A stretch of DNA of 13,716 nt from a virus (Duplodnaviria > Heunggongvirae > Uroviricota > Caudoviricetes), in IMG/VR virus record IMGVR_UViG_2778261086_000003, positions 1-13,716 of that record, one strand, 5' to 3'. The notes beneath the pieces were generated by a model. That model was not told the DNA's origin, ran no database searches, and saw only the letters and a list, made by a program, of their open reading frames with translations. Position numbers and translations under genes: made by a program. Below, piece by piece: positions 1 to 13,716 of this stretch (positions within the stretch are counted from its first letter, which is position 1; each line of letters starts with the position of its first letter).

Positions 1-867
1 TCAAAGGGGAGGTTCTGGTAGTTGCATCCAGTCGGTTACATTGCGACTCTGTGTTTCGAAAAATTCATCACCATTGCGGACAATATCGAAAAACTCTCCG
101 TCCCGATATTGCGCATAAAGAACGAATGCGCCATCACATAAAATAATTACGTGCTGATTATCATCAGGCATTCGCTCACTACAGCTTATCCAACCATCCG
201 GAGTTACCGGAACTTGCGGAATGGCTGTCTGCTCTCGAACGTCATTAGGCGCTATAGGTTCTGCTGCCAACTGACTGGCATATTTGTTAATGGTAACGAT
301 AAGCTCTTGCTCGGCCTCATCCAGACAATCACCGATACCTCGCCTGTCACCGTCAAAATCATCGAAATCGGCACGAATCTTGGCAACCTCCCGGATTGCG
401 GACAACACCTCACTAGGAATTACCGGATAGTTGGTTGACGTTTCCGCGATTTCCCGAAAATTATTGGTTGACGAATTCTTGTTTTCCCGAAAGTTTCCGG
501 ACTGAAGCATGGCGGCGCGGCAGGAGTTCCAGCCTCTCACCTCTGCAATAGCGGCAACAGCATCGACCGCGTACATTTTAAGAGGGTTAGGCATTGGTTT
601 TTCTTCAGGTACTACTGGCACTGGAGGGGTGGCATAAACAGGAATAACGTCCGATTGATCTTTATTACTTTCATCCGTCAAAGCCCAGAATAATTTCCCG
701 GCCGGATGTTTGAAAATATAAGCAACTGGATCTGCTTCCAGCGATGCCAGTGCAATTCGTGCCAGTTCTTCCGCTTCTTCTGCTGGCAGTACAACGTTGC
801 TACCAGGTCCGTATGTTTCGCGCCACTGCTTGATTGTAAGTAGTCGCTCTTTGGTAATAGTGGTCAT
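1..867 (-). CDS. DUF551-domain phage protein (288 aa)
   Basis: Complete ORF ending with a stop at 1-3. The C-terminal segment (MPDDNQHVIILCDGAFVLYAQYRDGEFFDIV...) resembles the DUF551 domain common in early-left regions of lambdoid prophages. Its start overlaps the stop of the upstream HNH gene by 4 nt. Family assigned from memory. Confidence 0.65.
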   Translation of the reverse strand: MTTITKERLLTIKQWRETYGPGSNVVLPAEEAEELARIALASLEADPVAYIFKHPAGKLFWALTDESNKDQSDVIPVYATPPVPVVPEEKPMPNPLKMYAVDAVAAIAEVRGWNSCRAAMLQSGNFRENKNSSTNNFREIAETSTNYPVIPSEVLSAIREVAKIRADFDDFDGDRRGIGDCLDEAEQELIVTINKYASQLAAEPIAPNDVREQTAIPQVPVTPDGWISCSERMPDDNQHVIILCDGAFVLYAQYRDGEFFDIVRNGDEFFETQSRNVTDWMQLPEPPL

Positions 868-1229
868 ACCGTAGCCCCTTCTTGATATTTTTCAAACCAG
901 AACACAACCGGGTCAGATTTCATTTCAACCAATCCCATACGAACCAGCGCTTTGCCTTTCCCGGATGCAAGGAATTCACGACGACCATCACTGATAATTC
1001 GCCGATAATCTTCCAGGCTACTGCAATGCTTGTGCAGATTGCATGGGTGGCATGCCGGAACCATGTTGGATATATCGTCACGTTCCTGGTGAAGCATATT
1101 TCCATCAAAACGAATGACCGGTTTTACATGGTCTGCATGCCACTTTTCGCCAAGTTCACAGCCGCAATAAGCACAGCGACCGCCAAACTTCATGCGCAAT
1201 TCTGCACGTTGTTTTTTCGTCAGTGCCAT
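864..1229 (-). CDS. HNH endonuclease (122 aa)
   Basis: Start placed at the internal ATG (1229-1227), preceded by GGAG and lying immediately after the upstream gene's stop (1231-1233); the longer ORF-track start at 1391 would overlap the Ead-like gene. Protein carries an HNH-type motif: CAYCGC...HADHVKP...CHPCNLHKH. Confidence 0.75.
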   Translation of the reverse strand: MALTKKQRAELRMKFGGRCAYCGCELGEKWHADHVKPVIRFDGNMLHQERDDISNMVPACHPCNLHKHCSSLEDYRRIISDGRREFLASGKGKALVRMGLVEMKSDPVVFWFEKYQEGATV

Positions 1230-1230
1230 T

Positions 1231-1920
1231 TCACTCTCCTTTGATGCGAATGCCAGCGGAGCGCTCGGCTTCACTTTGTTCCCAAAACCACTTGTGAAGC
1301 GCCATAAGCTTTTCGTCAATCGGTGCATATTTGCGATTAAAGTAGGCCTGAGCATCTTTCTCAGATTTGTCCGGCAATTCGCCAGGGCCAAACAGTGTGT
1401 TATAAATCCATGCCAGTCCGCTTTTAGCGTCGCCAGTTGCCTGCCATTCGATAATCGCAGCCTGCATGACCAGAATGTTTTTCCCGATTAACAGGTCCAG
1501 TTCTTTGAACCGGTTGCGGATGTATGCATTCTCGCTTTGTAATTTTGCGTTGCGCTTCTCTGCGGCTTCCAGCTCAACACGCAGCTTCCCTACCGTTAGC
1601 GCAATTTCCTCGTTCTCCTGGTCGCGGCGTTTGATGTATTGCTGTTTTCTTTCCAGCTCATCCAGCAGCGCCAAGACGGTAGCGGGATTGGCTGCGGCGA
1701 TGAATTCAGCATTGGCCTGCTGTTCCATTTGGAAATCTTCATCGAAACCGCTTTCTGGATGTGCTCCTTCAATTCTGCAAATAGGAATATATCCAGCAAC
1801 TTCACGATGAATTAGCGCATCATCACCATCAAATCGGCTCTCTCCATATTCGAGCGACCACTCACCACACGTTGCTTTTTCTGCCTTGGCCCGCAGTGCC
1901 TGAGAGTTAATTTCGCTCAC
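1231..1920 (-). CDS. Ead/Ea22-like phage early protein (229 aa), coiled-coil rich
   Basis: 229-aa ORF with a GTG start at 1920 that overlaps the TraR-like stop (GTGA). Central region is charged and heptad-like (ELERKQQYIKRRDQENEEIALTVGKLRVELEAAEKRNAKLQ). Composition and position match Ead/Ea22-family proteins of lambdoid phages. Confidence 0.6.
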   Translation of the reverse strand: MSEINSQALRAKAEKATCGEWSLEYGESRFDGDDALIHREVAGYIPICRIEGAHPESGFDEDFQMEQQANAEFIAAANPATVLALLDELERKQQYIKRRDQENEEIALTVGKLRVELEAAEKRNAKLQSENAYIRNRFKELDLLIGKNILVMQAAIIEWQATGDAKSGLAWIYNTLFGPGELPDKSEKDAQAYFNRKYAPIDEKLMALHKWFWEQSEAERSAGIRIKGE

Positions 1921-2138
1921 TTCGAACCTCTCTGTTTACTGATAAGCTCCAGATCTTCCTGGCAACTTGCACAAGTCCGACAACCCTGAACGGCCAGGCG
2001 TCTTCGCTCATCTATGGGATCGCCACACTCACAACAATGAGTGGCAGATATAGCCTGGTGGTTCAGGCGGCGCATTTTTATTGCTGTGTTGCGCTGTAAT
2101 TCTTCAATTTCTGATGCTGAATCAATGATGTCTGCCAT
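1917..2138 (-). CDS. TraR/DksA-family C4 zinc-finger protein (73 aa, lambda Orf73-like)
   Basis: 73 aa with a C-x2-C...C-x2-C arrangement (CCECGDPIDERRRLAVQGCRTCASCQ) typical of TraR/DksA C4 zinc fingers. Same size and position as the TraR homologue of phage lambda (Orf73). Confidence 0.8.
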   Translation of the reverse strand: MADIIDSASEIEELQRNTAIKMRRLNHQAISATHCCECGDPIDERRRLAVQGCRTCASCQEDLELISKQRGSK

Positions 2139-2144
2139 CTTTCA

Positions 2145-2234
2145 TTAATCCCTGAATTGTTGGTTAATACGCTTGAGGGTGAATGCGAATAATAAAAAAG
2201 GAGCCTGTAGCTCCATGATGATTTTGTTTTTCAT
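2145..2234 (-). CDS. candidate micro-ORF, 29 aa (MKNKIIMELQAPFLLFAFTLKRINQQFRD)
   Basis: Not in the ORF track (below its length cut-off). ATG lies 2 nt after the stop of the upstream 71-aa gene; its TAA lies 6 nt before the TraR-like ATG. It exactly fills the only gap in a tightly coupled operon. Speculative. Confidence 0.25.
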   Translation of the reverse strand: MKNKIIMELQAPFLLFAFTLKRINQQFRD

Positions 2235-2236
2235 GC

Positions 2237-2452
2237 TCACCGTTCCTTAAAGACGCCGTTTAACATGCCGATCGCCAGGCTTAAATGAGTCGGTGTGAAT
2301 CCCATCAGCGTTACCGTTTCGCGGTGCTTCTTCAGTACGCTACGGCAAATGTCATCGACGTTTTTATCCGGAAACTGCTGTCTGGCTTTTTTGATTTCAG
2401 AATTAGCCTGACGGGCAATACTGCGAAGGGCGTTTTCTTGCTGAGGTGTCAT
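2237..2452 (-). CDS. hypothetical phage protein (71 aa from ATG at 2452; alternative 93-aa form from 2518)
   Basis: ORF 2237-2518. I prefer the internal ATG at 2452 because it forms an ATGA overlap with the stop of the 27-aa micro-ORF upstream. No family recognised. Confidence 0.5.
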   Translation of the reverse strand: MTPQQENALRSIARQANSEIKKARQQFPDKNVDDICRSVLKKHRETVTLMGFTPTHLSLAIGMLNGVFKER

Positions 2453-2532
2453 TGAACAAGTCCCATGTCGGCAAGCATAAGCACACAGAATATGAAGCCC
2501 GCTGCCAGAAAAATGCATTCAGTGGTTGTCAT
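2449..2532 (-). CDS. candidate micro-ORF, 27-aa hydrophobic peptide (MTTTECIFLAAGFIFCVLMLADMGLVQ)
   Basis: Hand-translated from the minus strand. Its ATG overlaps the stop of the 63-aa gene (ATGA, 2532-2529) and its TGA overlaps the ATG at 2452 (ATGA). One predicted transmembrane helix. Not in the ORF track. Confidence 0.3.
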   Translation of the reverse strand: MTTTECIFLAAGFIFCVLMLADMGLVQ

Positions 2533-2720
2533 ACCTGGTCTCTCTCATCTGCTTCTGCTTTCGCCACCATCATTTCCAGCTTTTGTGAAAGGGATGCGGC
2601 TAACGTATGAAATTCTTCGTCTGTTTCTACTGGTATTGGCACAAACCTGACTCCAATTTGAGCGAGGCTATGTGCCATCTCAATGCTCGTTCTTAACTCA
2701 ACAGGAGATGCTTTGTGCAT
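2529..2720 (-). CDS. hypothetical small phage protein (63 aa)
   Basis: First ORF of the leftward gene chain, acidic C-terminus (AKAEADERDQV). No confident family assignment. Confidence 0.5.
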   Translation of the reverse strand: MHKASPVELRTSIEMAHSLAQIGVRFVPIPVETDEEFHTLAASLSQKLEMMVAKAEADERDQV

Positions 2721-3046
2721 ACAGCTCCCCGTTTATTATTTATCTCCTCAGCCAGCCGCTGTGCTTTCAGGGGATTTCGGGTAACAGAAAGGCCGGGAAA
2801 TACCCAGCCTCGCTTTGTAACGGAGTAGACGAAAGTGATCGCGCCTATGAAACCAAGGACCTGGTTGATGTCGTAACCGGCGAAATCACTACTATCCAGT
2901 CGTTACGCCATACCTCCGATCTTGATACCGGAGAGATGTATGTCTTCCTGTGTAAGGTTGAAGCCTGGGCGATGAATATTGGCTGCCACCTGACTATTCC
3001 ACAGAGCTGCGAGTTTCAGCTGCTGCGCGACAAGCAGGAGGCGTAA
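2672..3046 (+). CDS. hypothetical protein, possibly the 3' remnant of a nin-region gene
   Basis: Reading frame ends at a TAA (3044-3046) that overlaps the ninE ATG. It has no convincing ATG with a ribosome-binding site, and its 5' end overlaps the divergent 63-aa gene. May be a truncated remnant left by a deletion. Confidence 0.3.
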   Translation: MPSQCSFLTQQEMLCAYSSPFIIYLLSQPLCFQGISGNRKAGKYPASLCNGVDESDRAYETKDLVDVVTGEITTIQSLRHTSDLDTGEMYVFLCKVEAWAMNIGCHLTIPQSCEFQLLRDKQEA

Positions 3047-3216
3047 TGGCTACACCGCTTATTCGTGTCATGAACGGACACATCTACAGAGTACCAAATC
3101 GTCGTAAGCGTAAACCTGAGCTGAAGCCATCCGAAATACCAACACTGCTCGGATATACCGCCAGCCTGGTTGATAAAAAATGGTTGCGACTGGCAGCAAG
3201 GAGGAGTCATGGCTGA
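3046..3216 (+). CDS. ninE: NinE protein (56 aa)
   Basis: Hand translation [56 protein letters not shown] matches the NinE family. AGGAGG lies 6 nt upstream; the stop overlaps the ybcO start region. Confidence 0.85.
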   Translation: MATPLIRVMNGHIYRVPNRRKRKPELKPSEIPTLLGYTASLVDKKWLRLAARRSHG

Positions 3217-3499
3217 TTTGAGAAAAGCAGCGCGTGGTCGGGAATGCCAGGTAAGAATCCCTGGCGTATGTAATGGCAACCCTGAAACGTCTGTACTGGC
3301 ACATATCCGGCTGACTGGATTGTGCGGCACCGGTACGAAACCGCCAGACCTGATTGCCACCATTGCATGTTCTGCCTGCCACGACGAAATCGACCGCCGC
3401 ACGCATTTTGTTGACGCTGGATATGCAAAAGAATGCGCGCTGGAAGGTATGGCGAGAACACAGGTTATCTGGCTGAAAGAGGGGGTTATTAAGGCGTGA
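3209..3499 (+). CDS. ybcO: YbcO-family nin-region protein (putative Zn-binding nuclease, 96 aa)
   Basis: [37 protein letters not shown]... with GGAGG at 3201-3205. Conserved Cys/His pattern. Sits in the ninE-ybcO-rusA order seen in DLP12-type prophages. Confidence 0.85.
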
Positions 3500-3858
3500 A
3501 TACCTACAGCATCACATTACCCTGGCCTCCGAGCAATAATCGCTATTACCGCCATAATCGCGGGCGCACGCACGTCAGCGCAGAGGGGCAGGCATACCGC
3601 GATAACGTCGCCCGAATCATTAAAAACGCAATGCTGGATATCGGCCTGGCTATGCCTGTGAAAATCCGCATTGAGTGCCACATGCCGGATCGCCGTCGCC
3701 GTGACCTGGATAATCTGCAAAAAGCCGCTTTTGACGCACTCACTAAAGCAGGTTTCTGGCTGGATGATGCTCAGGTCGTTGATTACCGCGTTGTGAAGAT
3801 GCCTGTTACCAAAGGTGGGAGGCTGGAACTGACCATCACCGAAATGGGGAATGAATGA
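3496..3858 (+). CDS. rusA: RusA Holliday-junction resolvase (120 aa)
   Basis: GTG start overlapping the ybcO stop (GTGA). Sequence [28 protein letters not shown]...[10 protein letters not shown] is recognisable as RusA. Confidence 0.9.
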
Positions 3859-3995
3859 TGTTTGAGTTTTATATGGCAGAACTTCTTCGCCACCGCTGGG
3901 GGCATCTGCGCTTATATCGTTTCCCCGGTTCTGTTTTGACCGATTACCGAATACTGAAGAATTACGCCAAAACCCTGACAGGAGCAGGAGTATGA
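3855..3995 (+). CDS. ylcG: YlcG small protein (46 aa)
   Basis: Hand-translated: [50 protein letters not shown] overlap with the rusA stop. Lies between rusA and Q as in DLP12. Confidence 0.75.
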
Positions 3996-4080
3996 AGTCA
4001 GAGATAACAATCAACTAATACTGTTTTGTTGATTTTTGCTTGTAATTGGCGTTCTGGTCTGATTTTTGTGGAGTAAGTTG

Positions 4081-4458
4081 ATGCGTGATATTCAGATGGT
4101 TCTTGAGCGTTGGGGAGCGTGGGCGGCTAATAATCATGAAGATGTGACCTGGTCGTCCATTGCCGCCGGTTTTAAGGGATTAATTACTTCAAAAGTAAAA
4201 TCTCGCCCGCAATGTTGTGACGATGACGCGATGATTATTTGCGGGTGCATGGCCCGTCTGAAAAAGAACAACAGCGATTTGCATGATTTATTGGTGGACT
4301 ATTATGTCGGCGGCATGACTTTTATGGCGCTTGCACGTAAGCATGGGCGATCTGATTGTTGGGTTGGCAGGATGCTCCAGAAAGCTGAGGGCGTAGTGGA
4401 GGGTATGCTGATGGTGTTGGATCTCCGATTGGAGATGGATGCTGATTGTTCGAAATAA
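4081..4458 (+). CDS. quuD: late-gene antiterminator Q (QuuD-like, 125 aa)
   Basis: ATG at 4081 preceded by GGAG (4070-4073); the ORF-track start at 4066 is a TTG extension. [24 protein letters not shown]... resembles DLP12/phage-82-type Q. Followed by a terminator, as expected for the pR'/tR' arrangement. Confidence 0.8.
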
Positions 4459-4558
4459 TTAAAGGAAAAGTTGCTGTCTGATTGTCATTAGTCTAACATT
4501 TTAAATGTTGGAATCGCAACGTAGTTATTATCATATAACAGCTTGTTTCCTGATTTAG
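4459..4558 (+). promoter_or_regulatory. putative late promoter and Q-utilisation region
   Basis: Position only: in lambdoid phages pR' and qut lie between Q and tR'. Weak -35/-10 candidates (TTGCTG...TAACAT) but no confident match. Confidence 0.3.
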
Positions 4559-4585
4559 CCAGCCTCCCCAAAGGCTGGTTTTTTT
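4559..4585 (+). terminator. rho-independent terminator (tR'-like)
   Basis: Stem CCAGCCT (4559-4565), loop CCCCAA, stem AGGCTGG (4572-4578), then TTTTTTT (4579-4585). Plus-strand only; the reverse read has no U-tract. Confidence 0.65.
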
Positions 4586-4613
4586 CTAATAAGTATTATT
4601 TCGGGTAGGGATT

Positions 4614-5138
4614 TTATTGTTTAACCCATAATAATTCATTGACATTGAATCCCAACTTTTGAGCGGTTCGCACATAGTCTGCTTTTACTTTATCTGGAAT
4701 AGTTGGGGTCCTTGCCAGAATCCATAGGTATTCTCTGTTCGGACCACTGACAAGAGCATACTTATACTCATCATCCAGTTTGATTACATTATAGCCACCA
4801 TAGAAGGGGCCAAAAAACGAAACCTTCAATGCTGCAGTTTTAGTATCTCCAGTAAAGTATGCTTTACCTTCGCTCTCGCTCCATTTATTTTTCGTTGGAT
4901 CGTATCCACGGTTAAGTACACGAATCCCTCCGTCGTTCCGTTTTCCATAAGTAGCGCTGACCTGTTCCAGATCACGTTCGAACCGGTTCTCGAGGCGAGC
5001 TATTTCATACCATTTTCCGAGGTAGCGGTTGGCGTCAAAATTTGTAATCGGCTGCACACCTTTAGGTGGTGTCGGGGCCTTACATGCTATAAGAGTGAAA
5101 GAGAGTGCAATGCCAGTCAACACAGGCCATAACTTCAT
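4614..5138 (-). CDS. Blc-family bacterial lipocalin, outer-membrane lipoprotein (174 aa)
   Basis: Signal peptide with lipobox (LIAC), then lipocalin signatures (NFDANRYLGKWYEIARLENRFE...YLWILARTP). Homologous to but distinct from chromosomal Blc. Lower GC than flanking phage genes and antisense to late transcription. Confidence 0.85.
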   Translation of the reverse strand: MKLWPVLTGIALSFTLIACKAPTPPKGVQPITNFDANRYLGKWYEIARLENRFERDLEQVSATYGKRNDGGIRVLNRGYDPTKNKWSESEGKAYFTGDTKTAALKVSFFGPFYGGYNVIKLDDEYKYALVSGPNREYLWILARTPTIPDKVKADYVRTAQKLGFNVNELLWVKQ

Positions 5139-5330
5139 AATAAATCCTGTACTTTTGATAGTTGAGAGTAAGTATGAAAGATAGATGATTACGACCGATC
5201 ACTTAAAGAACTTTCATACTATATTAGGAATAGTCCATAACAGAAAAATTGTCAGTGATGACGCCAGAAAGGCAATTTATTCCGTGCACTACACAGTTTA
5301 TGTGTTAATGAATTAGTCAAGGGGGAGAAT

Positions 5331-6290
5331 ATGATAAAAAAACCTGTGATTGGAATCAGCGGTTGTTTGGCCGGTTCTGCTGTTCGTTTTGATGGTGGTC
5401 ACAAAAGAGCTGACTTTTTAATGGACAAATTAGTGGAATGGGTAACATTCAGACCAGTATGTCCGGAAATGGCTATAGGGCTGCCAGTTCCGCGTCCTGC
5501 TCTACGTCTTGTGCGCTCGACGCAAGGAAATATACGGATGTGTTTCAGCCACGACCAGAATGAGGATGTGACAGAGAGAATGACAGAGTTTAGTCGTTCT
5601 TATATGGACAAATTAAAGGATGTATCGGGGTTTGTGGTTTGTGCTAAATCTCCCAGCTGTGGCATGGAGCGCGTGCGTGTCTATGATGAAAATGGTAATC
5701 GAGGTCGTAAAGATGGAGTGGGACTATTTACGAGTACTTTGATGGAAAAGTTTTCCTGGCTACCGGTTGAAGAGGATGGGCGATTACATGATCCAGTGCT
5801 TCGTGAGAATTTTGTTGAAAGAGTTTTTGCTTTGCATGAGCTCAATCACCTTTACAAGGAGAAATTATCAAGAAGAGAGTTATTAGCTTTTCATAGTCGT
5901 TATAAGCTTCAGTTGTTGGCGCATAGTCAGGCAGGCTATAAAGATATGGGACCATTTGTGGCTGCAATACACGAGTGGGCGGACCTTGAATCATACTTTG
6001 AGGTGTATCGTGATAATCTGATGGCGATTCTCAGAAAACCAGCATCACGTAAAAATCACACGAATGTGCTGATGCATATACAGGGGTATTTTAGTAATTA
6101 CTTAAGTACACGCCAGCGTAAAGAGTTGAGCGAGGTTATACTTAACTATCGCTTTGGCACATTGCCTCTTCTTGCGCCGTTGACTCTGCTGAAGCATTAT
6201 CTGGGTGAGTATCCTAATGATTACTTGCTTACACAGAATTACTTCGATCCCTATCCGGACGAACTGGCTCTAAGACTGATGGTAAATTAA
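5331..6290 (+). CDS. DUF523-DUF1722 fusion protein (RudS/TudS-like putative thionucleoside desulfidase, 319 aa)
   Basis: N-terminus has the DUF523-type Cys pattern (GISGCLAG, PVCPE, CAKSPSCGM), consistent with a [4Fe-4S] TudS-like fold. The C-terminal ~150 aa resemble the DUF1722 (YbgA-like) domain. GGAG 4 nt before the ATG. Domain call from memory, not HMM-verified. Confidence 0.65.
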   Translation: MIKKPVIGISGCLAGSAVRFDGGHKRADFLMDKLVEWVTFRPVCPEMAIGLPVPRPALRLVRSTQGNIRMCFSHDQNEDVTERMTEFSRSYMDKLKDVSGFVVCAKSPSCGMERVRVYDENGNRGRKDGVGLFTSTLMEKFSWLPVEEDGRLHDPVLRENFVERVFALHELNHLYKEKLSRRELLAFHSRYKLQLLAHSQAGYKDMGPFVAAIHEWADLESYFEVYRDNLMAILRKPASRKNHTNVLMHIQGYFSNYLSTRQRKELSEVILNYRFGTLPLLAPLTLLKHYLGEYPNDYLLTQNYFDPYPDELALRLMVN

Positions 6291-6641
6291 TTGTATGCGA
6301 TATCATCCAAAAGGATGAGTTCCTGCATGCAGGATATTTACAATCGTAAAAACTACACTATGATACCCAGAGTGTCAGTTTGTATAAAAACTCTGTTTAC
6401 GCTGAAGAAACAATTGAGATGCAACTTAAAGTTGGTAAACATGCCAGTCAAAATATATAATATTATGATTCCACGCAGCTATATATAATATAACAGATTG
6501 GTTTAATAATTTGTCTTTGTGAGTTAAATACATAATTTTATACTTGTGATGCAATGAAATTTTCCTTATTGTTGAACTGGCGAATATTGATTTTCCACCT
6601 ATACTTACCTGGTGTAACCCCAATGATATCAGGTGGATAAT

Positions 6642-7373
6642 ATGCCATACATATGTTCTATCATTTTGGTGTTGAACTCGTTTGATGTCCGAATTGGTAA
6701 AGAAGATATTTTGTTTAAAAAAGGAAGTGCTGTTCTCATTGATTACAATTTAAAAGATTTTTTTTCATCAAATATAGATCATGTAATGATCGTAGATGTT
6801 GAAGAGAAAACAGTTAATGATTTCTTTAAAAGCAACACACTCTCACCTTTTTCTGTAAGAAGGTTTTATCCGGCATACTTGATGGTGGAATGTGAAGATT
6901 TTTCATTGTTAAAGAACTTGATTGCATGCTTGAATTGTGATGGCAGAACTGTGGATTTTGTTAGAAATCAAATATCACTTGCATGTCTTGCTATCTTATC
7001 TTCAGAGAAAATAGTGCAAAGTTTTTTATTTGGATGTCTTAATAGTTTAGGAAGTAAAGTTAAGGCTATTATTCACACGGATATATCTGCAGCATGGAGA
7101 CTTTGTGATATATCTTCAAGACTGTATCTGAGTGAAAGTCTGTTAAAAAGAAAATTAAAGCACGAAGGCTTATCATTTAGTAAGTTAATTCTTGAAGAGC
7201 GAATGGTGATGGCGGAAAGGTTATTAAGCTACAATTTATATTCTGTTGGAAAAGTTGCTGAGATATGCGGTTATGAAAACACGTCATATTTTGTAAGTGT
7301 TTTCAGAAGATATTTTGGTGTTCCTCCCCATCAATATTCATCAAGATTTTTTTTAGAAAAAGACATGATGTAA
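6642..7373 (+). CDS. AraC/XylS-family transcriptional regulator (243 aa)
   Basis: C-terminal AraC-type HTH region (LLKRKLKHEGLSFSKLILEERMVMAERLL...VGKVAEICGYENTSYFVSVFRRYFGVPPHQY). ATG at 6642 with AGGTGG 5 nt upstream; the ORF-track start at 6633 is a GTG extension. Very AT-rich gene and leader. Confidence 0.75.
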   Translation: MPYICSIILVLNSFDVRIGKEDILFKKGSAVLIDYNLKDFFSSNIDHVMIVDVEEKTVNDFFKSNTLSPFSVRRFYPAYLMVECEDFSLLKNLIACLNCDGRTVDFVRNQISLACLAILSSEKIVQSFLFGCLNSLGSKVKAIIHTDISAAWRLCDISSRLYLSESLLKRKLKHEGLSFSKLILEERMVMAERLLSYNLYSVGKVAEICGYENTSYFVSVFRRYFGVPPHQYSSRFFLEKDMM

Positions 7374-7434
7374 CGTGATGCGTTTTAATGATTTTGTAAT
7401 TTTCGTATTTGATAATTGTATGATGCTTTCAGCT

Positions 7435-7466
7435 ACGCCAGAATAATCGCTGGCGTTTTTCTTTTT
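7435..7466 (+). terminator. rho-independent terminator downstream of the AraC gene
   Basis: Stem CGCCAG (7436-7441), loop AATAATCG, stem CTGGCG (7450-7455), then TTTTTCTTTTT. Confidence 0.55.
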
Positions 7467-7561
7467 GAATAGATGTTCAAGCCTTACGCTAATGTAACTT
7501 CTATACCTTTCCTCTTCGTTCCGAACCGTGTACACCATCCGTTATTTGCGGAGGTGAGGCT

Positions 7562-7777
7562 ATGAAATCTATGGATAAGTTAACAACGGGCATTGCCTAC
7601 GGTACCTCCGCAGGCAGTGCTGGCTACTGGTTTTTACAGCTGCTCGATAAAGTCACGCCCTCACAGTGGGCAGCAATAGGTGTATTGGGTAGTCTGGTAT
7701 TTGGCCTGCTGACGTACCTGACAAACCTTTATTTCAAGATTAAAGAAGATAAGCGCAAGGCTGCGAGAGGTGAATAA
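7562..7777 (+). CDS. essD: class II holin (phage 21 S21-like pinholin, 71 aa)
   Basis: [26 protein letters not shown]...; two transmembrane segments; dual-start motif Met1-Lys-Ser-Met4. GGAGGTGAGG ribosome-binding site. Stop overlaps the endolysin ATG (TAATG). Symbol follows DLP12 naming. Confidence 0.85.
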
Positions 7778-8274
7778 TGCCTCCATCATTACGAAAAGCC
7801 GTTGCTGCGGCTATTGGTGGCGGGGCTATTGCTATAGCATCTGTGTTAATCACTGGCCCAAGTGGTAACGATGGTCTGGAAGGCGTCAGCTACATACCAT
7901 ATAAAGATATCGTTGGTGTATGGACTGTATGTTACGGGCATACCGGAAAAGACATTATGCTCGGTAAAACGTATACCGAAGCAGAATGCAAAGCCCTCCT
8001 GAATAAAGACCTTGCCACTGTCGCCAGACAAATTAACCCGTACATCAAAGTCGATATACCGGAAACAACGCGCGGCGCTCTTTACTCGTTCGTTTACAAC
8101 GTTGGTGCTGGAAATTTCAGAACATCGACGCTTCTTCGCAAAATAAACCAGGGCGATATCAAAGGCGCATGTGATCAGCTACGGCGCTGGACATACGCTG
8201 GCGGTAAGCAATGGAAAGGGCTGATGACTCGCCGTGAGATTGAGCGTGAAGTCTGTTTGTGGGGGCAACAATGA
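7777..8274 (+). CDS. rrrD: SAR endolysin (phage 21 R21-like lysozyme, 165 aa)
   Basis: N-terminal Gly/Ala-rich weakly hydrophobic SAR segment ([20 protein letters not shown]), then a T4-lysozyme-like catalytic core. Stop overlaps the next ATG (ATGA). Symbol follows DLP12 naming. Confidence 0.9.
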
Positions 8275-8503
8275 GTAGAGTAACCGCGATTATGGTTCGA
8301 AATGGGATGTTATCCGTGAACGTGTGCTCAAGCGTGACAAAGGACTGTGTCAGTTATGTCTGCGTGGTGGTGTGGTGCGTGAGGCGAAAACCGTTGACCA
8401 CATCATCCCTAAAGCACATGGCGGCACTGATGCCGACAGCAATCTGCAGAGCCTGTGCTGGCCGTGTCATAAGGCGAAGACGGCCCGTGAACGGCTGAAG
8501 TAA
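8271..8503 (+). pseudogene. Rz (spanin) start fused to the 3' fragment of an HNH endonuclease gene
   Basis: ATG at 8271 encodes MSRVTAI, identical to the first seven residues of lambda-type Rz, then diverges. A different frame (from ~8279, after an in-frame TAG at 8276-8278, to TAA 8501-8503) encodes SNRDYGSKWDVIRERVLKRDKGLCQLC...DHIIPKAHGGTDADSNLQSLCWPCHKAKTARERLK, an HNH C-terminus with no start codon. Confidence 0.6.
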
Positions 8504-8628
8504 GAACCAGTTCCCACTGCCAGAGGGGAGGGGCGGGTCAAATCCCTGTGACCTGACGTCTTCCGGACTGCCCGCCCCATCGTTTTTTTATACCCGCGAA
8601 AAATGAAATTTAACCAGGAGTGCCGCAT
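8504..8628. other. putative cos / packaging-site region
   Basis: Non-coding, GC-rich, with an imperfect inverted repeat (GGGGCGGG ... CCCGCCCC) and a T-tract, located between the HNH fragment and the small terminase gene, the usual cos position in HK97-like modules. Cleavage site not identifiable by eye. Confidence 0.3.
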
Positions 8629-9123
8629 ATGGCTGGAACGGCGGGGCGTTCCGGGCGTCGCCCCAAGCCAACGGCGCGCAAGGCGCTGGCCGGAAACCCC
8701 GGCAAGCGAGCCCTGAACAAAGATGAACCTGTTTTTACGCCCATCAAAGGTGTTGAGCCACCGGAGTGGTTCGCTGAAGAAGATCTCCCTCTCGCCACGA
8801 TCATGTGGCAACTGACAACCAAAGAACTCTGCGGTCAGGGCCTGCTGTGCGTGACTGACCTCGCGGTGCTTGAGCGGTGGTGCGTGGCCTATGAGTTCTG
8901 GCGACGTGCCGTGAAAAATATTGCCAGACAGGGCAACACCATCACCGGTGCAATGGGCGGCATGGTCAAAAATCCGGAGCTGACCGCCAAAAAAGAACAG
9001 GAGTCCGAGATGAGCAGCACGGGGGCAATGCTCGGACTCGACCCCAGCAGCCGTCAGCGTCTGATTGGCCTGGCGGGGCAGAAGAAAACCACTAACCCGT
9101 TTCTGAAAATCATCGAATCATGA
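8629..9123 (+). CDS. terminase small subunit (P27/HK97 gp1-like, 164 aa)
   Basis: ATG at 8629 with AGGAG 9 nt upstream; the ORF-track start at 8620 is a GTG extension. Basic N-terminus ([27 protein letters not shown]). Stop overlaps the large terminase ATG (ATGA). Confidence 0.8.
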
Positions 9124-9938
9124 GCCGGAAATCTTACCCCAACGTAAATGCTGCCAATCAGTATGCCCGGGATGTCGTGCGCGGAAAGATTGTGGCCTGC
9201 CAGTTTGTGATTCAGGCCTGCCAGCGCCATCTTGATGACCTGATGGAGGAAAAAAGTAAGTCGTTTCGTTACCGCTTCGACAAGGACCTGGCTGAACGGG
9301 CCGCGAAATTTATTCAGCTGTTGCCGCACACCAAGGGTGAGTGGGCATTTAAGAGGATGCCCATCACGCTGGAGCCGTGGCAGCTCTTTGTGATCTGCTG
9401 CGCGTTTGGCTGGGTCAATAAAGGCTCCCGGCTGCGCCGCTTCTGTGAGGTGTATACCGAAATCCCCCGTAAGAACGGCAAATCGGCAATCTCTGCCGGT
9501 GTCGCCCTGTATTGTTTTGCCTGTGATAACGAGTTTGGCGCGGAAGTGTATTCCGGTGCCACGACAGAGAAACAGGCGTGGGAAGTCTTTCGCCCGGCGC
9601 GACTGATGTGTAAACGCACACCCATGCTGACGGAAGCGTTCGGGATTGAGGTTAACGCCTCAAACATGAACCGTCCGGAGGATGGCGCGCGGTTTGAACC
9701 GCTGATCGGCAACCCCGGTGATGGTTCATCACCCCACTGTGCGGTGGTGGATGAATATCACGAGCACGCCACCGATGCGCTTTATACCACGATGCTTACC
9801 GGGATGGGGGCGCGACGTCAGCCACTGATGTGGGCCATCACCACCGCCGGGTACAACATTGAGGGGCCGTGCTACGACAAGCGGCGGGAAGTTATCGAGA
9901 TGCTCAACGGTTCGGTATCAAATCGGATGGCACGGTGA
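9120..9938 (+). pseudogene. terminase large subunit, 3'-truncated (N-terminal ATPase domain only, 272 codons)
   Basis: Walker A motif (EIPRKNGKS) and ATPase-domain sequence present. The reading frame stops after ...EMLNGSV, whereas intact large terminases are roughly twice this length. Downstream sequence switches to unrelated glycine-rich coding. Confidence 0.8.
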
Positions 9939-10600
9939 AAACGGCTCTCGAAAACCTTGGTTTGGGAGATGGCTCGGGGCGTTACAGCAAAACTGTCGTT
10001 TTTTCATCGTCGGGTTCATATACGTGGCCAGCTGACGTAAAACGAATTGACGTTATTCTGACTGCGGGGGGCGGCGGTGGCGGTGGATGTAACGCGGAGA
10101 ACGCAAATCAGACATTTTCAGGGGCTGGCGGAGGAGCCGGAGGTACTGTTTTTGCCACTATTTATGCGACAGACAACGATGCCGGGCCAGGGACCTATAC
10201 AGTGACAATTGGCAGCGGTGGTAGTGGTGCCAATGGGCCAGGGTCTGGAAATAATGGCGGTAATAGTTCGTTCATGACATTAACTGCGCTCGGCGGCCAG
10301 GGTGGGCAATGGGGCGGCGCTACAAATACCGCTGGCGGGCGCGGTGGCTCAGGCTCTGGCGGTTATAAAACTGAACAAGGCGGAGACGGTTCAGACGGAC
10401 AGGCGGGCCAGGCGCTATTAGTAGGCAATGGGGCATCGAGCTATTGGGGTGGCGGCGGCCGCGCTGGGCAACTGAGCGGTAATCCTGGAGTTTGCTCTGG
10501 CTCCGGCGGCGGGGGTGCATACGATAATAGCTATTCACACACGTCAGGACGTGGCGGGCACGGAGCTAATGGCGTGCTGGTAATTCGGGAGTTCATGTAA
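9869..10600 (+). CDS. glycine-rich tail-fibre C-terminal fragment (5' end missing; real start unknown)
   Basis: ORF of 243 codons overlapping the truncated terminase. Sequence ...[26 protein letters not shown]... followed by long GGxGG/GSG runs is characteristic of glycine-rich domains of phage tail fibres. Immediately followed by a tail fibre assembly gene. The first ~15 codons are probably terminase DNA read out of frame. Confidence 0.5.
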
Positions 10601-11005
10601 ATGAATGATATCTATGCAGTTGTTGATAATAACGTTGTTATTAATGTCATTATCTGGGACGGAATTTCTGAATGGAAACCAGAGGCTGGTAATTTAGTTC
10701 CGTTAAACGGCGATGCTGGCATCGGTTGGTCATATTCAGACGGAGTATTTACCGCGCCACCTCCCCCAGAACGCTCTCACAACGCGTTAGTTGCGGAGGC
10801 TGAGCTGCAGAAATCAGCACTACTGACCGTAGCAAATAACACAATAGCACCGCTGCAGGATGCCGTTGATTTGGAAATGGCGACAGACGATGAACAGGCG
10901 TTAATGCTGGCGTGGAAAAAATACAGGGTACTGCTGAACCGTGTTGATACCTCAGCGGCACCCGAAATAGAGTGGCCTACGCAACCGGGGGAGCGGGCCA
11001 GTTGA
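10601..11005 (+). CDS. tail fibre assembly protein (Tfa, 134 aa)
   Basis: C-terminus ...[48 protein letters not shown] matches the conserved Tfa chaperone C-terminal domain. Start is immediately after the upstream stop (TAAATG). Confidence 0.8.
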
Positions 11006-11129
11006 TATCAGGCGCAGCGTCAGCATCAACTGCTGTCACTGCGTCGATGTAGTCGAGTACCGCATTCAGCCGCGTTTTTTCATCATCAGTCAGTTTGCGG
11101 CCTGCACTTCTCCGTTGACATCTTTGTTA
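10977..11129 (-). pseudogene. decayed fragment of a second, convergent tail fibre assembly gene
   Basis: Minus-strand translation gives ...[38 protein letters not shown], sharing the TDDE...VD..AP.I.WP pattern of Tfa C-termini. No start codon in frame; upstream frames contain stops and a frameshift. Its 3' end overlaps the plus-strand tfa by about 28 bp. Confidence 0.4.
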
Positions 11130-11263
11130 TATGGTACAACTGCGCAGAGGCCTGTCTCTTCAATTGTGCCAGTTGAATACTACGATACAACGCTCGGCCT
11201 TCCTGTTTGGTGGAACATAACCACATCCACATGGAAAAGAGCTGATGGTGTAGATGTATAAAC

Positions 11264-11293
11264 TTAAAAAAGGCGCTTTTTAGCGCCTTTAAA
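11264..11293 (-). terminator. rho-independent terminator after the acyltransferase gene
   Basis: Stem AAAGGCGCT (11269-11277), loop TTTT, stem AGCGCCTTT (11282-11290). Read on the minus strand the hairpin is followed by a U-tract, directly after the acyltransferase stop at 11294-11296. Confidence 0.55.
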
Positions 11294-12415
11294 TTAAGAT
11301 ATTCTTTTAGCTATAGAATGACCTATATTTATAAACGGTTTTTCTATTACGTTATATATCAAGTAAGATAGGCTTATAGAAATTATGAGCGATGATATAT
11401 AAATGGCAAACGATCTATGTTCAGTGCTAATACCAATACTGGAACCGTAAAACTCAATAAACTGTATAACAGGAACATGAATCAGATAAAGTGAATATGA
11501 TATTCCACCAAGAGCAACAAGTGATTTATTGAATGAAATAACTTTATTATTTTCTAGAATAATAACACACAAAACAATCAGAAATGCAATATATGCAGAT
11601 CGCGTCAAACCATGTCCTTCAGACACCCCATTAAGCCAAAAAACAAACATCATTCCTAGAATGAAAACGCATAAACTATTTATAATAGAATTATTCATTC
11701 TTTTATGCCTAAGTAAAGGCATTGTCTCTGATATAATCATCCCTAAAATGAAATCATATACTATAGGATTGCCTATGAATCCTATATGAGAAAACACCCC
11801 TGTTTTTGCAATATTGAATGATTGGGCGTCAATTACTACCGAGTGGTTAAAGTAAAGAGAAATAATTGTACTTACAGCAACTAGAAAACATGATGTGATT
11901 AATACCCTGTATTTTATGCTTAATGACATGGATATTGCGAAAATAAAATAAAAATATATCTCGTACCCAAGTGACCATGAAACAATTAGCGTTCCCCACC
12001 CATAATATGGCGGTAGAGTTGAGACATCTAAAGGGATGAGAAGAAATGATTTTATAATATTATTTATAGAAAAAACACCACCCCATGATACGCCTGTGTA
12101 AATATTGTGGTAAAAAAGAAAAACATAAACGCTTAATACTATTGCGTAAACAGGATAAATTCTAAAAAATCTCTTTACAAGAAATGAGGCGGTATTTCTT
12201 AAAGATGTTTTTGTAAAGTTTTTAGTTGAGTATGATATTATAAATCCGCTTATTATAAAAAACAATTCAACTCCAAATATAGCATTCGCGGTTATCCTGT
12301 CCATGAAAGAACCAGGATCTACTTGCCCGAAAAGACCTCTATTATGACCAATAGCTACAGCAAGAGCTGCAATTCCACGAAGCGCTTCTATTCCGTATAA
12401 TTTATCTGTTTTCAT
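11294..12415 (-). CDS. acyltransferase-3 family integral membrane O-acyltransferase (Oac/OafA-like, ~373 aa)
   Basis: Multi-pass hydrophobic protein with the N-terminal acyltransferase-3 signature (LYGIEALRGIAALAVAIGH). Start placed at ATG 12415; the ORF-track start at 12418 is a TTG. Very AT-rich and adjacent to the integrase, as for O-antigen acetylase genes of Shigella phages. Confidence 0.85.
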   Translation of the reverse strand: MKTDKLYGIEALRGIAALAVAIGHNRGLFGQVDPGSFMDRITANAIFGVELFFIISGFIISYSTKNFTKTSLRNTASFLVKRFFRIYPVYAIVLSVYVFLFYHNIYTGVSWGGVFSINNIIKSFLLIPLDVSTLPPYYGWGTLIVSWSLGYEIYFYFIFAISMSLSIKYRVLITSCFLVAVSTIISLYFNHSVVIDAQSFNIAKTGVFSHIGFIGNPIVYDFILGMIISETMPLLRHKRMNNSIINSLCVFILGMMFVFWLNGVSEGHGLTRSAYIAFLIVLCVIILENNKVISFNKSLVALGGISYSLYLIHVPVIQFIEFYGSSIGISTEHRSFAIYISSLIISISLSYLIYNVIEKPFINIGHSIAKRIS

Positions 12416-12558
12416 CAAGTAATATAGTTAGTAGTTGATAAAATTGTTGCTGGAGTCTACCACCAAGAGCTTGGATGATCGACCAGTTAGCATCTCAAGC
12501 TGTATGCGTGAGACAAAAACGAGACACACAAAGCTTTGCAAGTCTTTGCGCTGTTTAC

Positions 12559-13716
12559 CTATGATACCTTCTCCTCAATCCAATCCGCCCACCACTGCAT
12601 CATTTCTCTGCGCTTATCGAGATACTGAGCATGGTTGTAAATCCCGCGCACAGATCCGCCGTTGGCATGTGCCAGTTGCACTTCAATAGCATCAGCAGGC
12701 CATTCGTGCTCGTTCATAATCGTGCTGAATTCATGCCTGAATCCGTGACCGCTTTCCAGACCTTCATAGCCGATTTGTTTGATCACAAGCAGTACAGCGT
12801 TCTCGCAAATTGGCTTCTTCTTATCGTTGCGCCCGGCAAAAACAAACTCTGATACTGGTTTGGTGATTGAACTTAGCGTAGTGAGAAGTTCAACTACCTG
12901 GTCTGACATAGGAACCACATGAATCTTGCGTCCCTTCATCACACTGGCCTCGATGGTGATAATCCTGTTTTCAAAATCGACGTTCTTCCATTGCATGGAA
13001 CGAAGCTCTTTTGTTCTTAGTGCTGTGTAGCGTAAAACTTTGGTCGCAATGAGAGATACGATACTTCCTGAAAATGTTGCAAGTGCTTTGTTGAATGCCG
13101 GGATCTGGTCGGCAGGTAAAAACGGGAAGTTCTTCTTGCGGTATCCTTTCATGGCGTCTGCAAGGTCAGGTGCCGGGTTATATTTAGCCCTTCCGGTGAC
13201 AATAGCGTAACGAAAAACCTCGCCGCATCTTCTGCGGGCTTTGTTGGCTCGCTCCATTGCACCGCGATCTTCAAATCTTCGGATTACTTCCAGCAGTTGC
13301 ATCGGCTCAATATCCTGAATTTCAAGACCGCCGATGATGGGTAAAATGTCGTCATCAAACATTTTGGCAAGTTCAGTTGCATAGCCTACTGACCAGACTT
13401 GCTTCTTGTGCTCGTACCATTCCTTGTAAATCGCACTAAATGAATTGTTGTTAGACGAAGCCTTTTTCGCCTTTACCGGATCGATGCCAACCGAGATGTC
13501 TTTCCTCGCAGTCCATGCCTTATCCCTTGCTTCCTGCAAAGTCATAAGCGGATATTTTCCGACAGTCAGGATTTTCTCCTTACCGTCAATCTTGTAGCGA
13601 AGCTGCCATACCTTTTTCCCTGATACAGGGACATAAAGGTACAGGCCATTACCATCGAGTAGGCGGTATGGTTTTTCTTTCGGCTTTGCTGCTTCAATCT
13701 GCTTAACGGTGAGCAT
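12559..13716 (-). CDS. tyrosine-type site-specific integrase (P4/CPS-53 IntS-like, 385 aa)
   Basis: Full ORF whose ATG is the last three bases of the window. C-terminal catalytic signature (HGFRHEF ... LAHANGGSVRGIYNHAQY). N-terminus MLTVKQIEAAKPKEKPYRLLDGNGLYLYVPV is typical of tRNA-associated P4-family integrases. Attachment site would lie beyond the window. Confidence 0.9.
   Translation of the reverse strand: MLTVKQIEAAKPKEKPYRLLDGNGLYLYVPVSGKKVWQLRYKIDGKEKILTVGKYPLMTLQEARDKAWTARKDISVGIDPVKAKKASSNNNSFSAIYKEWYEHKKQVWSVGYATELAKMFDDDILPIIGGLEIQDIEPMQLLEVIRRFEDRGAMERANKARRRCGEVFRYAIVTGRAKYNPAPDLADAMKGYRKKNFPFLPADQIPAFNKALATFSGSIVSLIATKVLRYTALRTKELRSMQWKNVDFENRIITIEASVMKGRKIHVVPMSDQVVELLTTLSSITKPVSEFVFAGRNDKKKPICENAVLLVIKQIGYEGLESGHGFRHEFSTIMNEHEWPADAIEVQLAHANGGSVRGIYNHAQYLDKRREMMQWWADWIEEKVS

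Follow-up and report, generated by a model that had tools for sequence, protein, structure and literature searches.

The subject of this analysis is an acyltransferase gene, probably encoding an O-antigen O-acetyltransferase, that lies near one end of a 13,716-nucleotide stretch of DNA (hereafter 'the window'; positions 1 to 13,716 of the IMG/VR Caudoviricetes record IMGVR_UViG_2778261086_000003). The span 11294-12558 comprises its coding sequence (CDS) together with the entire intergenic region up to the gene for an integrase, IntS, which is encoded on the same strand; 143 bp separate the end of the integrase gene, which lies upstream, from the start of the acyltransferase. A first-pass annotation of the window had placed the acyltransferase directly downstream of the integrase. 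The features of the locus follow one another in the order argW, attL, intS, acyltransferase gene of the AT3 (acyltransferase-3) family, terminator and a convergent tail fibre assembly gene, the first two of these being situated just outside the window. Coordinates are collected in Table 1.

The acyltransferase open reading frame (ORF) runs on the minus strand from an ATG at 12415, or an in-frame TTG at 12418, to the end of its stop codon at 11294; the ATG start, which gives a protein of 373 amino acids (aa), is the RefSeq choice. Its translation matched the Pfam family Acyl_transf_3 (PF01757) with an E-value of 9.3e-29 and 100.9 bits (cut-off 31), in an alignment of residues 7-354 with profile positions 2-325 of 326 (the full length of the family), and also matched phrog_3333 ('O-acetyltransferase') in PHROG with E=2.4e-86. 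The content of G+C (GC) measured in sliding windows was 0.30-0.34 over 11250-12500 and 0.47-0.58 on either side, in agreement with the AT-rich block reported at first pass; it was 31.5% in the acyltransferase CDS (23.5% at third codon positions) and 46.9% in the integrase gene. Chance would not come near to producing a 373-codon ORF in DNA of 31% GC that also matches a family over its full length. Comparison with an 89%-identical Salmonella orthologue, described below, gave a ratio of nonsynonymous to synonymous substitution rates (dN/dS) of 0.10 at a dS of 0.56, values that indicate purifying selection on the gene. The acyltransferase locus had no PADLOC match, and the idea that it is a defence-system gene was dropped for that reason.

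AT3 sugar acetyltransferases have a ten-helix core and a set of hallmark motifs, namely R/K-X10-H in transmembrane helix 1 (TMH1), FFXISG in TMH2, RXXR in TMH3 and SXXXY in TMH9 (PMC7448272, PMC9833829). In the protein encoded here, R13 and H24, with ten residues between them, make up the first motif; H24 is the counterpart of the essential H25 of OafA and is invariant in AT3 alignments, and R13 is conserved in at least 90% of sequences. An alignment of 53 sequences that included Sf6 Oac placed the remaining motifs and showed the following positions to be invariant: F52 and G57 of FFIISG (52-57), R82 and R85 of RFFR (82-85), W147 and E152 of WSLGYE (147-152), S306 and Y310 of SYSLY (306-310), and E358. 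Located where TMH3 meets the cytoplasm, RXXR is essential in Oac, OafA and OafB (PMC7448272, PMC9833829). The concern raised at first pass, that catalytic residues of AT3 enzymes might be lacking, did not materialize: all of the essential motifs are present and, judged by its sequence, the protein is a member of the AT3 (PF01757) family with its essential residues intact.

A model calculated with AlphaFold (AF2) on 50 homologues (pLDDT 92.7, pTM 0.92) was all-helical, with about ten long transmembrane (TM) helices, and the predicted chain ends after the tenth of them, at residue 373. The model has no 11th helix, and no Pfam match to an SGNH/GDSL domain was found in the acyltransferase. The lack of an SGNH domain gives the protein a predicted 'AT3-only' architecture, like that of Oac and unlike that of OafA and OafB, and an AT3-SGNH fusion of the OafA/OafB/OatA type was ruled out on the same grounds. 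The OafA and OafB proteins of Salmonella share with it an AT3 domain bearing the same essential Arg and His, they modify the O antigen in the periplasm, and OafB is prophage-borne (PMC7448272, PMC9558356); the differences are that the protein described here ends after TM10, with neither the 11th helix nor the SGNH domain, and that the GG-F/Y-XGV-D motif of the fused proteins is not evident in its TM1-TM2 loop.

The relationship to Sf6 Oac is a distant one. BLASTP aligned only 81 N-terminal residues (10-88), at 31% identity and E=2e-7, and Sf6 and other Shigella phages were missing from the tblastn matches of the acyltransferase at E<1e-5. The alignment is too short to indicate whole-protein orthology, and identity as an Sf6 Oac orthologue was therefore ruled out, even though the motifs are invariant between the two proteins. 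The initial description of a multi-pass acyltransferase of the Oac/OafA family thus stands for the AT3 assignment at the level of Pfam and for the approximately ten predicted helices, but not for orthology to Oac or for an OafA-type SGNH domain.

No related protein of solved structure was found by sequence. A fold search of the PDB with Foldseek returned cryo-electron microscopy structures of human HGSNAT, the lysosomal acetyl-CoA:glucosaminide N-acetyltransferase, as the only meaningful neighbours (probability 1.0, TM-score ~0.4), several of which hold acetyl-CoA or CoA; a fold search of BFVD gave a single unnamed 637-aa match and nothing else. HGSNAT is likewise a transmembrane protein that carries out acetyl-CoA-dependent acetyl transfer, but it is eukaryotic, has extra domains, is only 10-14% identical and catalyses N- rather than O-acetylation. 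These fold neighbours agree with the proposed passage of an acetyl group from acetyl-CoA through the membrane, and they are the one indication that the acyltransferase may use acyl-CoA to modify an extracytoplasmic sugar.

The distribution of the gene among hosts points to a particular acceptor. A sensitive blastn search found it in exactly 5 of 5,426 complete Escherichia coli genomes, and all five carriers hold wzy and wzx genes of the 'O17/O44/O73/O77/O106 family' (the O77 group, or O77g). The background frequency of O77-group wzy was 94 of the 5,426 genomes (1.7%). The corresponding hypergeometric probability that all five carriers would be of the O77 group is 1.4e-9, a value that assumes independence and overstates it, because four of the five carriers are closely related. 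At least two distinct chromosomal backgrounds are nonetheless represented, with wca, gnd and his of strain 2018-05-2CC ~96% identical to those of the rest. In this small and partly related sample, all hosts of the gene share a single O-antigen backbone. The GC content of the acyltransferase gene is the same as that of O77-group wzy (31.5%) and close to that of wzx (31.8%).

A separate observation concerns the O-antigen cluster itself. Between 2018-05-2CC and the other carriers the O77-group cluster is 99.7% identical, compared with ~96% in the flanking wca, gnd-ugd-wzz and his regions, which indicates horizontal transfer of the cluster between chromosomal backgrounds.

A similar association was seen beyond E. 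coli. The cluster of proteins to which the 89% orthologue belongs bears the Salmonella serovar names Carrau and Beaudesert, and we take Beaudesert to be group H as well. Carrau has the formula O:6,14,[24] (PMC5465390, PMC8021552), and the backbone of four sugars in Salmonella O:6,14 (H) is also that of the O77 group (PMC4732683). That backbone, ->6)Man(a1-2)Man(a1-2)Man(b1-3)GlcNAc(a1->, is said to owe its diversity to gtr genes on prophages (PMC7685785, PMC10304059). More distant AT3 clusters are named for serovars Montevideo/Infantis/Braenderup and Cerro. Homologues of the O77-group Wzy were found in Salmonella (70% identity), Enterobacter hormaechei (55%), Cerro (52%) and E. coli O176 (50%); the neighbours of the E. 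hormaechei Wzy are annotated 'O17/O44/O106 family flippase', and the O176 and Cerro Wzy proteins are 68% identical to one another. The acyltransferase clade and the O77-type Wzy clade overlap in host range, a correspondence seen genome by genome in E. coli only.

The position of the gene leads to the same class of function. The integrase is identical to Sf6 Int at 379 of 384 residues (99%); the recombination module is common to KplE1, Sf6, HK620 and CUS-3 (PMC2951348), and the integration site of Sf6 is argW (PMC3630932). Positions 10900-13716 are 100% identical to E. coli strain 2018-05-2CC, in which IntS is followed after ~160 bp by tRNA-Arg (argW), yfdC and mlaA. In that strain the att core described for KplE1/CPS-53, ATGGTGTCCCCTGCAG (PMC2951348), is found at the 3' end of tRNA-Arg, ~160 bp past the point where the window ends; neither a tRNA nor the att core was found within the window. 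The presence of argW and the att core just beyond the end of the integrase gene places the end of the window on the attL side of a prophage integrated at argW.

The order of genes in Sf6 is tailspike > terminator < oac (333 aa) < promoter < int (385 aa) < attP. The two loci share the tRNA-argW site, a near-identical integrase, gene order and orientation, a spacer of ~150 bp, an AT3-only gene with R-X10-H, FFXISG, RXXR and SXXXY, a terminator and a convergent tail gene. Sf6 OacA is a 2-O-acetylase of O-antigen rhamnose that brings about serotype conversion (group 6 antigen), and the statement made at the outset that Shigella phages carry an O-antigen acetylase gene in an integrase-proximal position is borne out by Sf6, where oac adjoins int. 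They differ in that the two acyltransferases are not orthologous (373 aa here, 333 aa there), in that the carrier here is a prophage with a Mu/SfV-type tail whereas Sf6 is a P22-like podovirus, and in the host O antigen, which is Man3-GlcNAc here and Rha3-GlcNAc there. By sequence, the layout is that of Sf6 int-oac, but with a different, uncharacterized acyltransferase.

The locus had also been likened to the equivalent slot of CPS-53 in E. coli K-12, where the order is argW, intS, yfdG (gtrA), yfdH (gtrB), yfdI (gtrS) and tail fibre assembly remnants. That comparison holds for the site, with gtrA/gtrB/gtrS at argW-intS, but the closest analogue is Sf6 int-oac. The CPS-53/KplE1 prophage has the same argW-intS slot, an integrase gene 96% identical in DNA, remnants of tail fibre assembly genes and AT-rich cargo; the difference is that its three genes add glucose by way of undecaprenyl phosphate-glucose (Und-P-Glc), in place of which the window has a single acyltransferase, presumed to use acyl-CoA. 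Blastn homology to the intS loci of Sf6, K-12, strain KL53 (L003) and L020 ends at position 12566, still within the integrase gene and 7 nt from its 3' end, indicating that cargo has been exchanged immediately after the integrase.

Other occupants of this slot bear out such exchange. An AT3 protein of 355 aa, 26% identical to that of the window, is encoded in the argW-intS slot of strains 300033 (L002, 4718-5785), CB209, Yu5 and 300444; strain GPEC1292 (L004, 4604-5710) has a gene for a 368-aa AT3 protein, beside a P22-type tailspike ('phage head-binding domain'); other E. coli have a 371-aa AT3 protein that is 50% identical; and in KL53 (L003, 4435-5544) the slot gene is annotated 'O-antigen polymerase'. 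The argW-intS slot serves in general for the exchange of cargo related to the O antigen, which includes gtrABS, several unrelated AT3 genes and a wzy-like gene. As a side observation, the loci with the 355-aa AT3 share with the window the first ~130 bp of intergenic sequence past the integrase gene (12428-12558). The 50%-identical AT3 (P0010 type) had no match in the complete E. coli genomes, and its link to O176 comes solely from neighbouring accession numbers. In strain 042 (O44) intS is not present at argW; its gtr prophage has been reported between ybhB and ybhC (PMC10304059).

Homologues of the acyltransferase are widespread in Enterobacterales, none of them named beyond 'acyltransferase'. 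Those with 47-89% identity are in every case at the end of a prophage and next to receptor-binding genes, in three different phage types. One, 47% identical, is encoded between int and the tailspike gene in the P22-like Salmonella phages SI8, Si3, SF6 and S.Inf 5-2 (group C1 hosts); another, 67% identical, is in an Enterobacter hormaechei prophage; and the 89% orthologue (L006) is at one end of a lambdoid prophage of Salmonella that has no intS, with a tail fibre gene and the hut operon as neighbours. The first-pass annotation had allowed that the protein might group with peptidoglycan or exopolysaccharide acyltransferases of unrelated context; the contexts found were instead prophage ends with tail fibre or tailspike genes. 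The AT3 proteins of the P22-like phages and the Salmonella O:6,14 prophage belong with that of the window in one AT3 subfamily, are encoded between int/att and the tailspike or tail fibre gene and come from hosts with mannose-rich O antigens; they differ in phage backbone and integration site, and they are themselves uncharacterized.

A 1.2-kb block containing the gene is 86% identical by blastn in the Salmonella lambdoid prophage, which is otherwise unrelated. The block includes the terminator, which is directly 3' of the acyltransferase stop codon and consists of a 9-bp G+C-rich stem with five G-C pairs (AAAGGCGCT/AGCGCCTTT), a 4-nt loop and a T tract. Its calculated folding energy was -15.6 kcal/mol (z=-4.46), a stability equalled by 0 of 200 shuffled sequences, so that the terminator of its own ascribed to the gene at first pass is well founded. 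With its own terminator, its atypical GC content and its apparent transfer as a unit between unrelated phages, the block has features typical of a 'moron' cassette. We also considered, and rejected, the idea that the acyltransferase had been transferred together with a receptor-binding protein: the tail fibre beside the Salmonella orthologue has no similarity to the tail fibre pieces of the window or to its 48-aa ORF, and the unrelatedness of the adjacent receptor-binding proteins indicates that the cassette moved alone.

Taken with the motifs, the slot, the contexts of the relatives and the host O type lend indirect support to the O-antigen modification module suggested at the outset. We consider it probable that the gene encodes a serotype-converting, phage-borne AT3-only O-acetyltransferase acting on the O77-group backbone, and the most likely acceptor is the Man-Man-Man-GlcNAc O unit of the O17/O44/O73/O77/O106 group. 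For the acyl donor, the acceptor sugar, expression and the phenotype, we infer the following. The gene would be a single-gene moron in the cargo slot between the integrase and tail fibre genes, retained as the prophage decays, and its product would be a protein of about ten helices in the inner membrane. A pore with R13, R82 and R85 in its lining would bind acetyl-CoA from the cytoplasm, and the acetyl group would be passed to the periplasmic face, where H24 would be essential. A hydroxyl of the undecaprenyl-linked O antigen would then be esterified prior to ligation onto lipid A-core, and the O epitope would be expected to change, as would the adsorption of phages that depend on the O antigen.

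Several observations weigh against this interpretation. All relatives above 30% identity are uncharacterized. The gnd/wzz/his alleles of four carriers out of the five are the same or differ by 0-1.1%, and in Salmonella and Enterobacter the co-occurrence with O type is seen at the level of serovar or species only. Of the four strains that have the 355-aa AT3 in this slot, three (CB209, Yu5 and 300033) are of the O77 group and one (300444) is O125, which means that the link between cargo and O type can be broken, O-antigen switching being one way; as an independent case of an O77-specific enzyme, this AT3 consequently gives partial support only. The promoter scan found no consensus sigma-70 promoter on the minus strand in 12416-12558, and reading of the sequence revealed no Shine-Dalgarno element ahead of the acyltransferase start. 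The O17, O44, O73, O77 and O106 structures are described as differing solely by glucose branches, with no O-acetyl group reported (PMC7685785, PMC10304059), and we found no published O-acetylation of the O77g or Salmonella Carrau O antigen in the literature searched. Finally, AT3 proteins also acylate capsules, enterobacterial common antigen (ECA), osmoregulated periplasmic glucans (OPG) and peptidoglycan (PMC9558356).

This breadth of the family gives rise to the alternative that the enzyme acylates some other envelope glycan, be it a group 1/4 or K capsule, ECA, colanic acid, OPG or peptidoglycan, which we judge to be unlikely. Phage CUS-3, which carries a K1 capsule O-acetyltransferase, counts in its favour, as do the closest phage homologues, which bear the automated label 'exopolysaccharide production protein ExoZ'. 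The recombination module is conserved in CUS-3 of the K1 strain RS218 (PMC2951348), and each of the jobs named is performed by AT3 proteins (PMC9558356). However, ECA, colanic acid, OPG and peptidoglycan are universal in E. coli, whereas the gene is confined to one O genotype (5 of 5 carriers among complete genomes). Peptidoglycan O-acetylation in Gram-negative bacteria, moreover, normally proceeds via PatA/PatB and not via AT3-only proteins. The orthologue is confined to Salmonella serovars with the same O backbone (PMC4732683), the slot elsewhere holds O-antigen genes (gtrABS, a wzy-like gene and Sf6 oac), and the NCBIfam equivalog models for named acyltransferases went unmatched, apart from one partial, sub-threshold match to SucT.

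Under a second alternative, which seems to us very improbable, the gene serves no function in the host at present and is the silent or residual cargo of a prophage that is itself defective. This view draws on the state of the prophage, which is heavily deleted. A 272-aa fragment of the terminase large-subunit ATPase (9120-9938) overlaps a glycine-rich tail fibre fragment (9869-10600), and the fusion implies that the head and tail genes between the two are missing and that the prophage is a deletion derivative; the same fusion is found in GCA_002486895.1. The lack of a consensus promoter and Shine-Dalgarno element noted above also speaks for silence, as does the tight repression of the intS promoter in the related KplE1 (PMC2951348). 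Against it stand the intact ORF in AT-rich DNA, the low dN/dS and the retention of every essential residue. The identical 373-aa protein is found in at least six differently and independently deleted versions of the prophage, always adjoining intS at argW, which argues that the gene is maintained while the phage decays and neighbouring phage genes vanish. Strain 2021CK-01784 has the same integrase-acyltransferase-tail fibre end on a prophage that appears to be complete and whose contractile tail is of the Mu/SfV type.

Sequences flanking the gene likewise argue against silence. In addition to the strong terminator, a candidate extended -10 element, TGgTAGACT, is located at 12462-12454 on the minus strand, and its TGnTAnACT pattern is kept in the Salmonella orthologue as TGcTACACT; the conserved element may function as a promoter. 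No terminator was found in the 143-bp spacer between intS and the acyltransferase gene, so read-through from intS is possible. Phase variation of the Dam/OxyR type, as in the gtr and oafB operons, was rejected since only one GATC is present in the 143-bp upstream region. Within the same spacer we noted a perfect 10-bp palindrome, CAAAGCTTTG, at 12538-12529 (minus strand), right after the integrase stop codon, and near it a repeated TGCAAAG motif (12529-12550, minus strand) that is conserved across intS loci with very different cargo; these may be a binding site or a weak terminator of int.

Equally improbable, in our judgement, is that the O antigen is modified with a non-acetyl acyl group (e.g. 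succinyl or propionyl) or that a partner protein is needed for the final transfer: AT3 does include the succinyltransferase OpgC and longer-chain acyltransferases, and how AT3-only proteins complete transfer without an SGNH domain is unresolved (PMC9558356), but the characterized phage-borne AT3 modifiers of O antigen (OacA/B/C/D and PhiV10 Oac) are all acetyltransferases that act alone when cloned (PMC9558356), the 1.2-kb cassette has no candidate partner gene, and the sole NCBIfam match, to the mycobacterial SucT model, is a weak and partial one of just 67 residues and 18.7 bits against a cut-off of 1275.

Table 1. Features at the acyltransferase locus, with positions in the window
Feature	Position	Strand	Basis or remarks
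AT3 acyltransferase CDS	11294..12415	-	373 aa from ATG; PF01757 and PHROG matches; putative O-antigen O-acetyltransferase
Intrinsic terminator of acyltransferase gene	11262..11290 (hairpin 11290-11269)	-	Terminator scan and RNA fold
Integrase-acyltransferase intergenic region, 143 bp	12416..12558	-	Sequence reading, promoter/terminator scan
Putative mobile 'moron' cassette (48 bp upstream, CDS and terminator)	11239..12463	-	blastn, 86% identity to Salmonella L006
intS, Sf6/KplE1-type tyrosine integrase of argW recombination module	12559..13716	-	Pfam Arm-DNA-bind_3, Phage_int_M and Phage_integrase
Tail fibre assembly gene, convergent with acyltransferase gene, distal edge of cargo slot	10601..11005	+	Pfam Caudo_TAP, E=3e-32; layout as in Sf6 tailspike/oac and K-12 tfaS-yfdK/gtrS
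Gene remnants between tail fibre assembly gene and cassette	10977..11261		Pseudogene and 48-aa ORF
Partial tail fibre assembly pseudogene	10977-11105	-	RefSeq annotation of identical region
48-aa ORF remnant	11115-11258	+	phrog_20787 'virion structural protein', E=8e-9

The remnants at 10977-11261 may be what is left of a tail fibre segment that was invertible or had been exchanged, comparable to tfaS/yfdK in K-12. Elsewhere in the window, a lipocalin-family gene (4614-5138, minus strand) and a YbgA-family gene (5331-6290) precede an ORF with an AraC-type helix-turn-helix (6633-7373), which is in a second AT-rich block (GC 0.31-0.33 at 6250-7500, within 4614-7500). With the Q antiterminator region on one side and the lysis genes on the other, these genes look like another moron cargo cluster.

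The kind of module described here is known, and indeed textbook; what is new is the link to host O type and the prediction of a substrate, so that the gain is a specific and easily tested prediction and not a new mechanism. Strains of O77g share one O-antigen cluster and are indistinguishable from that cluster in silico, and the differences among them have been ascribed to prophage genes, with glucosylation alone described (PMC7685785, PMC4732683). This complex of serogroups is currently of interest to epidemiology (PMC13188871, PMC13248637), and an outbreak of haemolytic uraemic syndrome due to Shiga toxin-producing E. coli O77g:H18 in France in 2025 drew attention to it (PMC13188871, PMC13094856). 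If its function is confirmed, a backbone-specific prophage acetyltransferase would be an extra marker for O77g sub-typing, a candidate cause of serological cross-reactions and a probable modifier of phage susceptibility.

We would go one step further only tentatively, in a proposal that we regard as possible but on balance doubtful: the acyltransferase and its 89% Salmonella orthologue may determine an unrecognized O-acetyl epitope on the shared backbone, possibly corresponding to a minor O factor of Salmonella group H, while the 355-aa AT3 acetylates another position. If true, this would add an axis of acetylation to a group so far explained by prophage glucosylation alone, and the different position acetylated by the second AT3 would mirror the OacA/OacB/OacD enzymes of Shigella flexneri. 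The locus itself illustrates how a gene for surface-polysaccharide modification is retained during the decay of a prophage.

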